A stretch of DNA of 39,471 bases. Origin: Escherichia phage vB_EcoM_SHAK9454. The position numbers were made by a program, and so were the translations under genes. The notes below the pieces were generated by a model. It searched no databases, was not told where the DNA came from, and worked only from the letters and a program-made list of their open reading frames with translations. Positions 4,464 to 26,375 of this stretch are shown here, piece by piece; position 1 is the stretch's first letter, and each line of letters starts with the position of its first letter. Location: the sequence record OR594184, one strand, 5' to 3'.

Positions 4464-4691
4464 ATGAACACAATCACTGGTGCCATAACCAAAGGTTTTC
4501 GAGCAATTTTCGGTGAAACGCAAGAAGTATGCACCAATCATAAATTCGTACTTTCTTGCGTAGCAGGTGACGAGTTTGACGGGTTCGATAAACTGGTGGT
4601 TTGCGACCATTGCGGACAAGAGGCTATCCAACACTCAAACGGTAAATTTGAATTAATAGACGATAGCCTTACAGAAGGAGACGGCGAGTAA
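4464..4691 (+). CDS. Hypothetical early protein (75 aa) with Cys pairs, possible zinc ribbon
   Basis: RBS GAGAGGGAAG then ATG; C-x-N-H ... C-x-x-x-x-x-x-x-x-x-x-x-x-x-x-CDHC arrangement; acidic C-terminus. Confidence 0.6.
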   Translation: MNTITGAITKGFRAIFGETQEVCTNHKFVLSCVAGDEFDGFDKLVVCDHCGQEAIQHSNGKFELIDDSLTEGDGE

Positions 4692-23983: not shown

Positions 23984-24006
23984 ACTAAACTATCACTATA
24001 GGGAGA
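23984..24006 (+). promoter_or_regulatory. Phage RNAP promoter (phi10-like), strongest consensus match
   Basis: ACTAAACTATCACTATAGGGAGACC; initiating GGGAGA as in T7 class III promoters. Confidence 0.9.
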
Positions 24007-24108
24007 CCAAGAGATAGACTAAAGGTTTCCCTATTACTTCAGTCCATACGGATTGGGCATACAGTAAGTAATAAACTTTATCTTTCAATTGAATAGGAGA
24101 ATTATCAT

Positions 24109-25158
24109 ATGGCAAACGTTCCGGGTCAGAAAATTGGTACAGACCAAGGTAAAGGCAAATCCAGTTCCGACGCTCTGGCGTTGTTCCTTAAGGTATTTGC
24201 TGGTGAAGTCCTGACCGCATTCACTCGCCGCTCTGTAACTGCTGACAAGCATATTGTCCGTACCATTCAGAACGGTAAGTCTGCTCAGTTCCCGGTCATG
24301 GGTCGCACCTCTGGTGTGTATCTGGCTCCGGGTGAGCGACTGTCCGATAAGCGTAAAGGTATTAAACATACCGAGAAAACTATTACCATTGATGGTCTGC
24401 TGACTGCCGATGTGATGATTTTCGACATTGAAGACGCGATGAACCACTATGACGTGGCTGGTGAGTATTCCAACCAGTTGGGTGAAGCTCTGGCTATCGC
24501 TGCTGATGGTGCGGTTCTGGCTGAAATGGCTATCCTGTGTAACCTCCCAGCTGCATCCAACGAGAACATCGCTGGTCTGGGTACTGCGTCCGTACTGGAA
24601 GTTGGTAAGAAAGCTGACCTCAACACCCCGGCTAAACTGGGCGAAGCAATCATCGGTCAGCTGACCATTGCTCGTGCGAAGCTGACCTCCAACTACGTTC
24701 CTGCTGGCGACCGTTACTTCTACACCACGCCTGACAACTACTCTGCAATCCTCGCGGCTCTGATGCCTAACGCTGCTAACTATGCTGCGCTGATTGACCC
24801 AGAGACTGGTAACATCCGTAACGTGATGGGCTTCGTTGTTGTTGAAGTTCCGCATCTGGTACAGGGTGGTGCTGGTGAGACCCGTGGTGCTGATGGTATC
24901 ACTATCGCTTCCGGCCAGAAACACGCATTCCCAGCAACTGCTACTGGAGACGTTAAAGTCGCTAGGGACAACGTTGTAGGTCTGTTCTCTCACCGTTCTG
25001 CTGTGGGTACTGTGAAGCTGCGTGACTTGGCGCTGGAACGTGACCGTGACGTCGATGCTCAGGCCGACCTGATTGTAGGTAAATACGCTATGGGTCACGG
25101 TGGTCTGCGTCCAGAAGCAGCAGGCGCACTGGTTTTCACAGCGGCGTCAGCGGGTTAA
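24109..25158 (+). CDS. Major capsid protein 10A
   Basis: 349 aa; strong RBS; T7 gp10A-like size and position; C-terminus AAGALVFTAASAG. Confidence 0.97.
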   Translation: MANVPGQKIGTDQGKGKSSSDALALFLKVFAGEVLTAFTRRSVTADKHIVRTIQNGKSAQFPVMGRTSGVYLAPGERLSDKRKGIKHTEKTITIDGLLTADVMIFDIEDAMNHYDVAGEYSNQLGEALAIAADGAVLAEMAILCNLPAASNENIAGLGTASVLEVGKKADLNTPAKLGEAIIGQLTIARAKLTSNYVPAGDRYFYTTPDNYSAILAALMPNAANYAALIDPETGNIRNVMGFVVVEVPHLVQGGAGETRGADGITIASGQKHAFPATATGDVKVARDNVVGLFSHRSAVGTVKLRDLALERDRDVDAQADLIVGKYAMGHGGLRPEAAGALVFTAASAG

Positions 25159-25421
25159 CGACCTTTAAGGCCCTCTCTACAGAGGGTCCTACCTTAGAGA
25201 CGTATAGTTCTACGGCGGGAACCAGCCTGAAGGTTGACTTCCCTGAGCTTTCAGATGTGACCGATTGGTCGCTGCTTGAGGTGACTACGCCTGATGGTGT
25301 TAGCTACTCCCGTAGAACCAACAGTCTCTACTTCAAGGCCACCTCTGGCGTGGAAGGTCTGGTGATTGTTGGGTATGACGGCACGCCTGTGCGTTCCTTC
25401 AACGTATCTTTCACAAACTAA
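24109..25421 (+). CDS. Minor capsid protein 10B, made by -1 ribosomal frameshift at G_GTT_TTC (25131-25137)
   Basis: Slippery heptamer in correct register 7 codons before the 10A stop; -1 frame stays open for 94 codons to TAA 25419-25421. Confidence 0.6.
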
Positions 25422-25427
25422 TTGAAA

Positions 25428-25465
25428 CCCCTTGGGTGCCTTCGGGTGCTTGAGGGGTTTTTTTT
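25428..25465 (+). terminator. T-phi-like intrinsic terminator
   Basis: CCCCTTGGGTGCC-TTCG-GGTGCTTGAGGGG followed by 8 T; close to recalled T7 T-phi AACCCCTTGGGGCCTCTAAACGGGTCTTGAGGGGTTTTTTG. Confidence 0.85.
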
Positions 25466-25480
25466 GCTTAAGGAGGGACT

Positions 25481-25570
25481 ATGGTCCTTATTTACACAGG
25501 GTTAGCACTATTCGTCTTATTCTGGGCGTACCTGCTGTCCAGCTCACCGTCTAGCGCCTATGACCGTTAA
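25481..25570 (+). CDS. Small hydrophobic peptide (29 aa) between T-phi and gene 11
   Basis: AGGAGGG then ATG 25481 (short spacer); MVLIYTGLALFVLFWAYLLSSSPSSAYDR. Confidence 0.3.
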   Translation: MVLIYTGLALFVLFWAYLLSSSPSSAYDR

Positions 25571-25581
25571 GGAGTAAACCT

Positions 25582-26148
25582 ATGGCTCAATACATTCCAC
25601 TGAATGCTAACGATGACTTAGATGCCATCAACGATATGTTAGCAGCTATCGGTGAACCAGCAGTCCTACAGCTTGACGAAGGTAACGCTGACGTCTCGAA
25701 CGCTCAACGTATCCTGCATCGTGTCAATCGTCAGGTCCAAGCTAAAGGCTGGAACTTTAACATCAACGAAGCTGCTGTCCTGACACCTGATGTCCAAGAC
25801 AATAGGATTCGATTCCTGCCGTCTTACCTTCGGGTCATGACTGCTGGTGCTACCAGTTACTACAGCAACATGGGGGGCTATCTCTATGACCTGTCCACTC
25901 AGTCCACGACCTTCACTGGACCAATTACAGTCGAACTGGTGGAGATGAAACCGTTCGCTGAGATGCCTGTAGTATTCCGTGACTACATCGTTACCAAGGC
26001 TAGCCGTGAGTTCAACGCTAAGTTCTTCGGTAGCCCAGAGTCTGAACTGTACCTTCGTGAGCAGGAAGCAGAACTCTACCAGCAGGTGATGGAGTACGAG
26101 ATGGACACTGGTCGCTACAACATGATGTCCGACATCGGGAGGGACTAA
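25582..26148 (+). CDS. Tail tubular protein A (T7 gene 11-like)
   Basis: 188-aa ORF with TAAGGAG RBS immediately upstream of the tail tube B gene; T7 gp11-like size and position. Confidence 0.9.
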   Translation: MAQYIPLNANDDLDAINDMLAAIGEPAVLQLDEGNADVSNAQRILHRVNRQVQAKGWNFNINEAAVLTPDVQDNRIRFLPSYLRVMTAGATSYYSNMGGYLYDLSTQSTTFTGPITVELVEMKPFAEMPVVFRDYIVTKASREFNAKFFGSPESELYLREQEAELYQQVMEYEMDTGRYNMMSDIGRD

Positions 26149-26375
26149 TGGCTAGTCACAACCTGAAGATTCACCGCCAGCACTTTGGTCCGGTACAACT
26201 GGGTCTAAAGACAGCAGAGCTGAGACTTAACGACCGGGACTTTAAGGTTGGCGACTGGCTTATCCTGAATGAGTGGGACAACGGGTATACTGGACAACAG
26301 GTAGCACGTAAGGTTGTCCACATTGCTGACGTTGGTGACATCGCTGAGGGATACGTCCTAATGAGTATGATTTAA
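26148..26375 (+). CDS. ASCH-like / DUF3850-family small protein inserted between tail tube genes
   Basis: HNLKI..QHF..V..G.KT.ELR.NDRDF.VGDWLILNEWD.GYTG pattern matches the recalled DUF3850 consensus; ATG overlaps the gene 11 stop. Confidence 0.65.
   Translation: MASHNLKIHRQHFGPVQLGLKTAELRLNDRDFKVGDWLILNEWDNGYTGQQVARKVVHIADVGDIAEGYVLMSMI

Follow-up and report, generated by a model that had tools for sequence, protein, structure and literature searches.

The window, a 39,471-nt stretch of DNA from Escherichia phage vB_EcoM_SHAK9454 (OR594184), is the genome of a K1F-like relative of T7 in Kayfunavirus. Its capsid gene is 94-97% identical at the nucleotide level to those of many Kayfunavirus phages. 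The product is Gp10A-like (Pfam PF21703, E = 1e-104), and the neighbours (scaffold, gene 11 and gene 12) are syntenic. The features of the locus, in order, are:

23993-24006, + strand: phage-RNA-polymerase promoter-like site TCACTATAGGGAGA, 5' of gene 10, an exact match
24109-25158, + strand: gene 10A, major capsid protein of 349 aa, from the list of open reading frames; stop codon TAA at 25156-25158
25131-25137, + strand: shift-prone heptamer G_GTT_TTC, read from the sequence; GTT is Val342 and TTC is Phe343 of 10A
25134-25421, + strand: -1-frame part of 10B, from translation; TTT, 94 codons and TAA
25137-25193, + strand: linker-coding part, extension residues 1-19, HSGVSGLTTFKALSTEGPT, predicted to be disordered
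25163-25199, + strand: candidate 3' RNA hairpin, from folding, with a putative role
25194-25418, + strand: Ig-like beta-sandwich domain, extension residues 20-94, phrog_7473, from a structure model
25424-25469, + strand: Tphi-like intrinsic terminator, from a terminator scan; 17-pair hairpin at 25424-25461, then a T run

Promoter-like sites with no more than two mismatches number four in the window against 0.16 expected, and T7 has its promoter phi10 at the position equivalent to 23993-24006; this site is context and lies outside the shift signal. At the 3' end, the terminator hairpin reads AACCCCTTGGG...GAGGGGTTTTTTTT, resembling Tphi of T7, and is invariant among the relatives compared, apart from L013/L047, which has lost most of the terminator.

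The preliminary description placed G_GTT_TTC in shift register seven codons before the 10A stop, and we find it there, at 25131-25137 over codons 342-343, with six zero-frame sense codons between it and the TAA. The further claim of an X_XXY_YYZ site is right as to the zero-frame register but not as to the heptamer, which is not a strict one (X_XX is G_GU). The same exception is found in the T7 gene 10 site (PMC5009743), where the heptamer is identical, G_GUU_UUC (PMC5009743; PMC1635266), and the two sites align on a homologous Val-Phe pair. By itself the heptamer is not rare: the window has two copies against 3.95 expected, the second being at position 4494 in the register GGT_TTT_C. The significance of the site rests on comparison with relatives and not on the rarity of its letters. 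Across 23 loci from five genera (T7, K1F, KP32, JA10, PP74 and Kayfunavirus relatives), GTTTTC(A) is invariant and nearby synonymous sites vary. All 57 unique domain-bearing loci with a recognisable capsid C-terminus carry the domain in the -1 frame behind [G/C/A]GTTTTC. The heptamer register, beyond the T run alone, is kept in 53 of 57 unique sequences; because the first heptamer position is C or A, not G, in 3 of 57, the comparison suggests that the A-site U_UUC slip is the sole essential part of the site.

The -1 frame is open as had been described, for 94 codons (25137-25418) after the re-read TTT (25134-25136), and its TAA at 25419-25421 indeed lies just before the Tphi-like hairpin, with a gap of 3 nt. 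The +1 frame of the window closes after 3 codons. Likewise, in the 23 loci the -1 frame stays open for 43-99 codons beyond the 10A stop and the +1 frame closes in 3-10. Of the codon positions in long ORFs on the + strand of the window, just 0.5% have at least 96 open -1 codons after them. The ratio pN/pS is 0.18 in the -1 frame, whereas the other two frames have 1.23 and 1.74, and 34 of the 52 variable sites 3' of the 10A stop fall at position 3 of -1-frame codons. The encoded protein is conserved to ~40% identity in at least five genera, at a constant place and in a constant frame. By these measures the -1 frame is under purifying selection, whereas the other frames are not, and it codes for protein.

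The choice of Val-Phe codons follows the extension. We scanned IMG/VR with the MGHGGLRPE motif as key, the slip site not being a condition, and counted a -1 ORF as long from 35 codons upward. With Val-Phe written GTTTTC (43 unique sequences), 42 have a long -1 ORF; with GTCTTC or GTATTC (8 sequences), seven have short ones, and the eighth has one that is merely the next gene. This association gives a Fisher p of 1.4e-5, kinship ignored. Three sequences have GTGTTY, and there a Big_2 extension lies behind ACAAAGG. Among the relatives compared, the extension is strictly tied to the U-run. Database homologues of the domain are all 54-87-aa ORF fragments; where a long contig is recorded for them, it measures ~40 kb. 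Occurrences of the domain outside the capsid -1 context were also sought in IMG/VR and rejected: the 12 motif-less matches were locus-edge truncations, a variant motif and chance matches. The variant capsid motif, MGHGALRPE, still has the domain in the -1 frame.

We conclude that the major capsid gene of the window very probably carries a T7-type programmed -1 ribosomal frameshift making 10B, which would be expressed and incorporated into virions. Most ribosomes would read GTT TTC ACA and onward to the TAA at 25156-25158, giving 10A of 349 aa; a minority would slip by -1 on G_GUU_UUC and continue to the TAA at 25419-25421, giving 10B. If the event proceeds as in T7, the A-site tRNA-Phe would re-pair from UUC to UUU (25134-25136) and the P-site tRNA-Val, imperfectly, from GUU to GGU. 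The predicted 10B (24109-25134 joined to 25134-25421) has 437 aa and 45.9 kDa, 9.5 kDa more than the predicted 36.4 kDa of 10A. Its trans-frame tryptic peptide would be YAMGHGGLRPEAAGALVFHSGVSGLTTFK, with the junction ...ALVF-HSGV..., and a predicted peptide 3' of the junction is ALSTEGPTLETYSSTAGTSLK. The protein would consist of the capsid fold through Phe343, a flexible linker of ~19 residues and an Ig-like domain of ~75 residues. It would co-assemble with 10A, so that a fraction of subunits would display the domain outside the head; such surface exposure, and any adhesive role of the domain, is presumptive.

A programmed -1 frameshift in T7 gene 10A/10B was reportedly described by Condron, Atkins and Gesteland in 1991. 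That frameshift is reviewed in PMC5009743. It takes place in about 10% of translations (PMC1635266), and by analogy the shift efficiency in the window may also be about 10%. The T7 arrangement invoked in the preliminary description is matched by the heptamer and its register, by the open -1 frame and by the adjoining Tphi-like terminator; both phages have a Gp10A-like gene, the heptamer on a homologous Val-Phe pair, a -1 ORF ending before Tphi and a phi10-type promoter. In contrast, the extensions differ: that of T7 is a low-complexity ...EETLTPAQEAARTRAANKA... tail, that of the window is a folded Ig-like domain, and the two have no sequence similarity past the first few residues. A longer extension than in T7 had been noted, which is correct in length (94 versus 56 codons), but it is a different domain and not an elongated T7 tail. 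By one counting scheme, the extensions are 56 codons in T7, 48 in K1F and 94 in the window. The distance from site to terminator is 286 nt in the window versus roughly 200 nt in T7.

Closer relatives carry the same arrangement. Escherichia phage Peacock (MK903279) shares the heptamer and has an extension of 94 codons, annotated as a joined CDS, "minor capsid protein". Citrobacter phage CR8 (NC_023548) has the same heptamer and domain family, with an extension 51% identical to that of the window (E = 2e-27), and differs in its genus, Caroctavirus, and in the length of the extension, 91 codons; its 10B record marks "tttt" as the place of a -1 frameshift and cites "matches in mass spectrometry analysis". 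The record of Escherichia phage PE3-1 (NC_024379) mentions a slippery sequence; there an ATG overlaps the 10A stop, whereas the window has no such ATG. For Kvp1 10B, MS/MS showed the shift at TTTTCA (PMC2579914). In T3 and phiYeO3-12, as in the window, a -1 frameshift adds an Ig-like domain of similar size, with 85-87 codons past the stop, that ends before Tphi (PMC5009743). However, the T3 shift is at C_CCA_AAG on Pro-Lys (PMC2579914), and the domain is a classical Big_2. The T3-type CCCAAAG is absent from the final 75 nt of 10A in the window, and the 10A tails read ...ALVFTAASAG in the window versus ...AIVLPKVSE in T3. In literature on Kayfunavirus or Przondovirus frameshifting, we found nothing specific.

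K1F, the type phage of Kayfunavirus, shares genus, heptamer and 10A C-terminus with the window, but it is extended by a short tail of T7 type, 48 codons long past the slip (44 triplets by the count of PMC6277420), and has no Ig-like domain, which indicates that the domain has been exchanged within Kayfunavirus. A K1F g10b::gfp fusion gave stable fluorescent phage (PMC6277420), which speaks for synthesis of the -1 product, and for its assembly into virions, in this genus.

The folded C-terminal domain anticipated in the preliminary description is borne out at the level of prediction: a disordered linker of ~19 residues leads into a confidently modelled Ig-like sandwich. In the model, linker residues 1-9 and 11-16 have pLDDT <50, and an S..TF motif in the linker is common to the KP32, CR8 and K1F types. 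The domain is modelled as a seven-strand, two-sheet Ig-like sandwich with pLDDT ~90 that superposes on known Ig-like domains. The window's extension gave no Pfam match, Big_2 (PF02368) and Big_3 (PF07523) included; among 49 family members the matches were weak throughout, to Big_3 in five (best E = 0.0025) and to Big_2 in one (E = 0.042). A search for the domain in solved structures gave no match. Homology to the T3-type Big_2 extension was considered and rejected, with an hhalign probability of 2% and no BLASTP match. As far as these sequence comparisons reach, a single conserved slip site is used by at least three C-terminal modules that are unrelated to one another. In the relative L013/L047, half of the domain is gone together with most of the terminator, so the domain may be dispensable.

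What stimulates the shift is less plain from the RNA. Local folding found no stable structure 5-9 nt 3' of the heptamer (z = -1.0 to -1.5): the fold of 25138-25240 has z = -1.03 and the segment from +5 to +64 has z = -1.5 versus shuffles, and a larger fold owes its significance solely to the terminator within it. Nor did RNAalifold yield a structure common to all genera (-2 kcal/mol across genera). An SD-like stimulator ~10 nt 5' of the site is not present in the window, where the upstream sequence is GCAGGCGCACT; AGGAG, which a synonymous GGA codon creates in Peacock, occurs upstream of the site there alone and is not conserved. Thus, unlike the canonical bacterial -1 PRF cassette, as in dnaX, the window has no strict heptamer, no structure spaced by 5-9 nt and no upstream SD. 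The bare T7 heptamer out of context gives <1% shifting (PMC1635266), so shift efficiency would depend on 3' context.

A 3' RNA element may raise the efficiency, and the hairpin at 25163-25199 is a candidate. Its core stem pairs 25169-25176 with 25181-25188 around the loop CTAC, 31 nt past the heptamer; an optional lower stem (25163-25170 with 25192-25199) would bring it to 25 nt past, and the fold of 25157-25202 has -16.8 kcal/mol. Seven pairs of the core are kept in 13/13 Kayfunavirus-type sequences through one-sided, pair-preserving changes, but 209 of 500 shuffles score equally well, which makes this hairpin indistinguishable from shuffles. Its positional counterpart in the KP32 lineage has covariation support: an 18-pair hairpin 19 nt past the site, 98.9% paired in 30 distinct sequences, with compensatory substitutions at two pairs, some of which change linker amino acids. 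The hairpins at this position in the CR8-like group and in the window lineage are different ones. Frameshifting in T7 is influenced by the CCCC in Tphi, which lies >200 nt 3' of the site (PMC5009743), and an AACCCC arm is present in the Tphi-like hairpin of the window, 286 nt 3' of the site. Two long-range pairings were rejected. Pairing of a G-run 3' of the site with the terminator CCCC is unsupported, the G-run being absent in the KP32 and CR8 lineages. Pairing of ACCTTTAAG with CTTAAGGT was dropped, since both arms encode conserved residues (TF, LKV) and RNA constraint is inseparable there from protein constraint.

Taken as one proposal, which we regard as possible yet rather doubtful, a lineage-specific hairpin ~19-31 nt past the heptamer would be the stimulator, and phrog_7473, which lacks a Pfam model, would be a capsid decoration delivered solely by frameshifting in these searches and module-exchanged with Big_2 and T7-type tails. 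If true, a long-distance hairpin stimulator would fit the long-unexplained 3'-context dependence of T7 gene 10 frameshifting.

Alternatively, the -1 ORF could be a small gene in its own right ("gp10.1" or "hypothetical protein"), in which a start codon of its own, or termination-reinitiation where 10A ends, would give a free Ig-like protein. Indeed, most GenBank records show a separate 54-87-aa ORF, and LS2, LS3, HC12, PE3-1 and ESh23 have TAATG at the 10A stop, where coupling is possible. In the window, however, the codon at that place is ACG (25158-25160), which is no start, and the first in-frame start, a GTG that lacks an SD, is extension codon 41; it lies inside the domain and would halve it. 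No conserved start codon or Shine-Dalgarno site was found in the -1 frame across the lineages compared; start positions vary by lineage, and the K1F -1 frame has no start codon whatever. Moreover, the stretch between heptamer and start is still conserved, with mostly synonymous changes, the extension accompanies GTTTTC but no other spelling of Val-Phe, and a free domain would have no evident means of capsid attachment. A separate gene is accordingly improbable.

We give still less credence to transcriptional slippage, in which the polymerase would drop a U in the T run and a share of the mRNAs would carry an in-frame fusion. The site does hold a homopolymeric T4 run, and the -1 fusion would be identical, an outcome for which sequence analysis is compatible with both readings. 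For polymerases to slip productively in bacteria and phages, runs of ~8-9 or more A/T are needed, and four T are far below this. In addition, the T7 event is treated as ribosomal frameshifting at G_GUU_UUC (PMC5009743), and the MS/MS-confirmed 10B of Kvp1 was read as programmed -1 frameshifting (PMC2579914). The 53 of 57 sequences noted above conserve the heptamer register and not the T run alone.

Least probable of all is a -1 frame that is open by accident, or is a relic in decay, without a functional 10B: chance alone would readily give the heptamer, a deletion in one relative destroys the domain and T7 10B is dispensable in the laboratory, but against this stand the scarcity of equally long open -1 frames (0.5% of codon positions), the pN/pS of 0.18, a protein conserved to ~40% identity in at least five genera in the same place and frame, a model with a confident fold, and the mass-spectrometry matches for 10B in the CR8 record.

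The T7-type frameshift in this capsid gene is real but ordinary and has already been annotated in close relatives, and the current understanding of frameshifting is unchanged by these results. Their main value is for annotation: most records split 10B into a capsid gene and a "hypothetical protein". As a rule, GTTTTC on the conserved Val-Phe pair together with an open -1 frame denotes a joined minor capsid protein, by which hundreds of entries could be fixed; public genomes with this extension number ~450. The relatives also offer a natural experiment, in which synonymous GTC or GTA before TTC occurs exactly where the extension is absent. K1F g10b has already been used for display (PMC6277420), and Ig-like capsid decorations are convenient display sites. 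They are also candidates for weak binding of carbohydrate or mucus.

The window is a T7-like phage genome. Its 24000-25480 region shares 94-97% identity with numerous Kayfunavirus (K1F-like) phages from hosts that include Escherichia, Salmonella and Klebsiella, with Escherichia phage SR04 as the top match (97.2%). The features that bear on gene 10 are the following:

23993-24006, plus strand: phage-promoter-like site TCACTATAGGGAGA, upstream of the 24109-25158 ORF
24109-25158, plus strand: gene 10A, 349 aa; Pfam Gp10A-like (major capsid protein), E = 1e-104
25131-25137, plus strand: heptamer GGTTTTC, with GTT as codon 342 and TTC as codon 343, giving the register G_GTT_TTC
25134-25421, plus strand: -1 frame, from the re-read TTT at 25134 to TAA at 25419-25421, 94 more open codons
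25424-25461, plus strand: terminator hairpin of 17 pairs with a T run, beginning three bases past that TAA

After the heptamer, 10A runs for six sense codons to a TAA at 25156-25158, and the +1 frame reaches a stop after 3 codons. The preliminary description had placed G_GTT_TTC in register near this stop, with a -1 frame open for 94 codons up to a TAA just ahead of a Tphi-like hairpin, and all of this holds; the hairpin arms are similar to those of Tphi, the terminator after T7 gene 10. The predicted frameshift product 10B has 437 aa (45.9 kDa) and exceeds 10A by 9.5 kDa.

Other ORFs lie around the locus. A 29-aa hydrophobic ORF (25481-25570, plus strand; MVLIYTGLALFVLFWAYLLSSSPSSAYDR), preceded by AAGGAGG, follows the Tphi-like terminator and comes before gene 11; phage phi1_146013 has its counterpart as a hypothetical, and the stretch of T7 annotation examined shows no gene between 10 and 11. 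Tail tubular genes 11 and 12 flank a 75-aa ORF (26148-26375, plus strand) that is not in the T7 gene order and that the annotation of one relative names 'RNA-binding protein'. The 337-aa antisense ORF across nearly the entire capsid gene (24085-25098, minus strand) most likely arises from the codon pattern of the capsid gene and is not a gene.

The heptamer alone is no more than chance would supply, with two copies of GGTTTTC observed in the window against 3.95 expected. The second copy (4494-4500, plus strand), inside ORF 4464-4691, reads GGT_TTT_C, which is not a shift register. Among the codon positions of the window's long ORFs, just 0.5% are followed by a -1 frame open this long. The decisive evidence comes from comparison with related sequences. 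Across 23 loci (Kayfunavirus, Przondovirus [KP32], Ningirsuvirus [JA10], Berlinvirus [PP74], K1F and T7), GTTTTC and the following A are invariant while adjacent synonymous positions vary, and the -1 frame is always open for 43-99 codons past the 10A stop. We also scanned IMG/VR by the upstream MGHGGLRPE motif; the slip site was not a criterion, so the scan can serve as a natural experiment. Where Val-Phe is written GTT TTC, the -1 ORF reaches 35 codons or more in 42 of 43 unique sequences. Where it is GTC TTC or GTA TTC, seven of eight have short -1 ORFs only, and the long -1 ORF of the eighth is the next gene. In three sequences with GTG TTY, an extension of the Pfam Ig-like type Big_2 comes after another shifty site, ACAAAGG. 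Without correction for shared ancestry, Fisher p = 1.4e-5. The sole GTTTTC sequence with a short -1 frame (10 open codons) is L087 (IMGVR_UViG_2974615076_000001), whose +1 frame runs on for 43 codons after the 10A stop, the same as the K1F-type tail by length alone; an indel or sequencing error right after the slip site probably explains this.

Downstream of the 10A stop, pN/pS among 13 close relatives is 0.18 in the -1 frame and 1.23 and 1.74 in the others, and third codon positions of the -1 frame hold 34 of the 52 variable sites. Nucleotides 25205-25262 (roughly CTACTCCCGTAGAACCAACAGTCTCTACTTCAAGGCCAC, encoding YSRRTNSLYFKAT) are invariant, third codon positions included, as far as L012, the most divergent Kayfunavirus-type sequence compared, whose third positions differ widely elsewhere.

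The extension is indeed longer than that of T7, 94 versus 56 codons, but the idea of an elongated T7 tail was rejected: it is a different module, PHROG 7473 (E = 6e-37, function unknown). No Pfam match was obtained for it and no relative was found among solved structures. Homologues of 40-57% identity follow the capsid gene of KP32-like Klebsiella phages, Citrobacter phage CR8, and Pectobacterium, Dickeya, Enterobacter and Cronobacter phages; protein databases list homologues solely as 54-87-aa ORF fragments, some called 'minor capsid protein', and those with a long contig recorded come from one of about 40 kb. AlphaFold2 modelling from 49 members of the family gives a disordered linker (extension residues 1-19) and a seven-strand sandwich (residues 20-94; block-mean pLDDT 89-92).

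Most records annotate the extension as a separately initiated small gene, and in five relatives (LS2, LS3, HC12, PE3-1 and ESh23; TAATG loci L192, L193, L194, L196 and L199, around position 430) a T at the base equivalent to window 25159 creates TAATG, an ATG in the -1 frame overlapping the 10A stop. Termination-reinitiation could give such phages a free 87-aa Ig-like protein as well. For the window this origin is very unlikely: it has TAACG at 25156-25160, that is, ACG and no ATG, and its earliest in-frame start is a GTG at extension codon 41, within the domain. No conserved start codon or Shine-Dalgarno site was found for the extension, and the K1F extension has no in-frame start codon. Rather than any start codon, the extension follows the slip site. 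A further IMG/VR scan, this time searching for the domain, placed it in the -1 frame after [G/C/A]GTTTTC in 57/57 unique loci where a capsid C-terminus could be recognised upstream; the other matches were loci cut short, a single variant of the capsid motif, or chance. Transcriptional slippage as the source of the -1 product is less probable still, polymerase slippage on a run of four T being implausible. Least credible is a fortuitous or decaying frame, contradicted by selection, cross-genus conservation and the confident fold.

The most likely mechanism, by homology with T7, is a ribosomal -1 slip on G_GUU_UUC. In T7 gene 10, X_XX is G_GU (reviewed in PMC5009743) and about 10% of translations shift (PMC1635266); the MS/MS-confirmed 10B of Kvp1 was interpreted as a shift at TTTTCA. 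The A-site tRNA-Phe could re-pair perfectly, UUC to UUU, and the P-site tRNA-Val would re-pair only partially. The first heptamer position is C or A in 3/57 sequences, which suggests that the A-site slip is the essential part. From T7 and the K1F g10b::gfp phage (PMC6277420), 10B would be incorporated into heads with its domain displayed outward.

The T7 heptamer gives <1% shifting when its native downstream sequence is replaced (PMC1635266), and CCCC in Tphi, >200 nt off, affects T7 frameshifting for a reason left unexplained (PMC5009743); context therefore matters. We found no structure in the window at the canonical 5-9 nt spacing after the heptamer, and no conserved upstream Shine-Dalgarno site. 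The candidate stimulators are farther off:

25169-25176 / 25181-25188, plus strand: core stem of a candidate hairpin, beginning 31 nt past the heptamer
25163-25170 / 25192-25199, plus strand: its optional lower stem, beginning 25 nt past the heptamer
L017:1495-1580 and 29 other KP32-like loci: 18-pair KP32-type hairpin in capsid genes of Przondovirus, Berlinvirus and Ningirsuvirus

The seven core pairs of the window-lineage hairpin are kept in 13/13 Kayfunavirus-type sequences examined, divergent ones included; changes are one-sided and pair-preserving only, and a covariation test does not set them apart from shuffles. Its KP32-lineage counterpart, 19 nt past the heptamer, is better supported: it is 98.9% paired over 30 distinct sequences, two pairs change by way of G-U intermediates (A-U to G-C, C-G to U-A), and 0/500 shuffles reach the observed covariation or pairing. 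Some of its substitutions alter linker residues (Thr to Val, Ser to Pro). No description of it was found in searchable papers. CR8-like phages have a different hairpin at the same place. We infer that the downstream hairpin may be a stimulator with an atypical spacer.

At least three unrelated C-terminal modules stand behind a frameshift in T7-like capsid genes. One is the short low-complexity tail common to T7 and K1F (...EETLTPxQxAARTRAAN..., 56 and 48 codons). The frameshift-added extension of T3 is a classical Big_2, unlike the phrog_7473 domain of the window, to which it shows no detectable sequence relationship (hhalign probability 2%; no BLASTP match). Big_2 extensions occur behind C_CCA_AAG, ACAAAGG or GTTTTC, so module and slip site assort independently; the loci are L063 and L123 (GTTTTC), L065, L074, L096 and L134 (ACAAAGG), and L042 and L110 (CCCAAAG), and their ACA_AAG site differs from the C_CCA_AAG of T3. 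Both the T7-type tail (K1F) and the phrog_7473 domain occur within Kayfunavirus; the module has therefore been exchanged and the slip site retained. In L013 (2124-2330; contig shared with L047, IMGVR_UViG_2974604219_000001), a deletion of ~159 bp (window-equivalent ~25289-25447) sets extension codon ~53 directly against what is left of the Tphi-like terminator, its 3' arm and T run. Most of the terminator is lost, as is the C-terminal half of the Ig-like domain, and the frame continues into the small membrane ORF downstream. Either the relative is a natural mutant lacking these parts of the 10B domain and Tphi, or the deletion is an artefact of assembly.

The window's frameshift is the textbook T7 10A/10B arrangement, as had been proposed, and the preliminary description was a correct reading of an ordinary feature. 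Peacock, 94% identical and with the same 94-codon extension, is already annotated with a joined CDS ('minor capsid protein') citing CR8; the CR8 record, whose extension is 51% identical to the window's, gives 10B by -1 frameshift at 'tttt' with mass-spectrometry matches noted; the PE3-1 record notes the slippery sequence; and frameshift-added Ig-like domains on phage structural proteins, including the T3 capsid protein, have been reviewed (PMC5009743). The finding is therefore already known. Its remaining value lies in annotation hygiene, the codon-level natural experiment, the modular exchange of extensions and a possible long-spacer hairpin.
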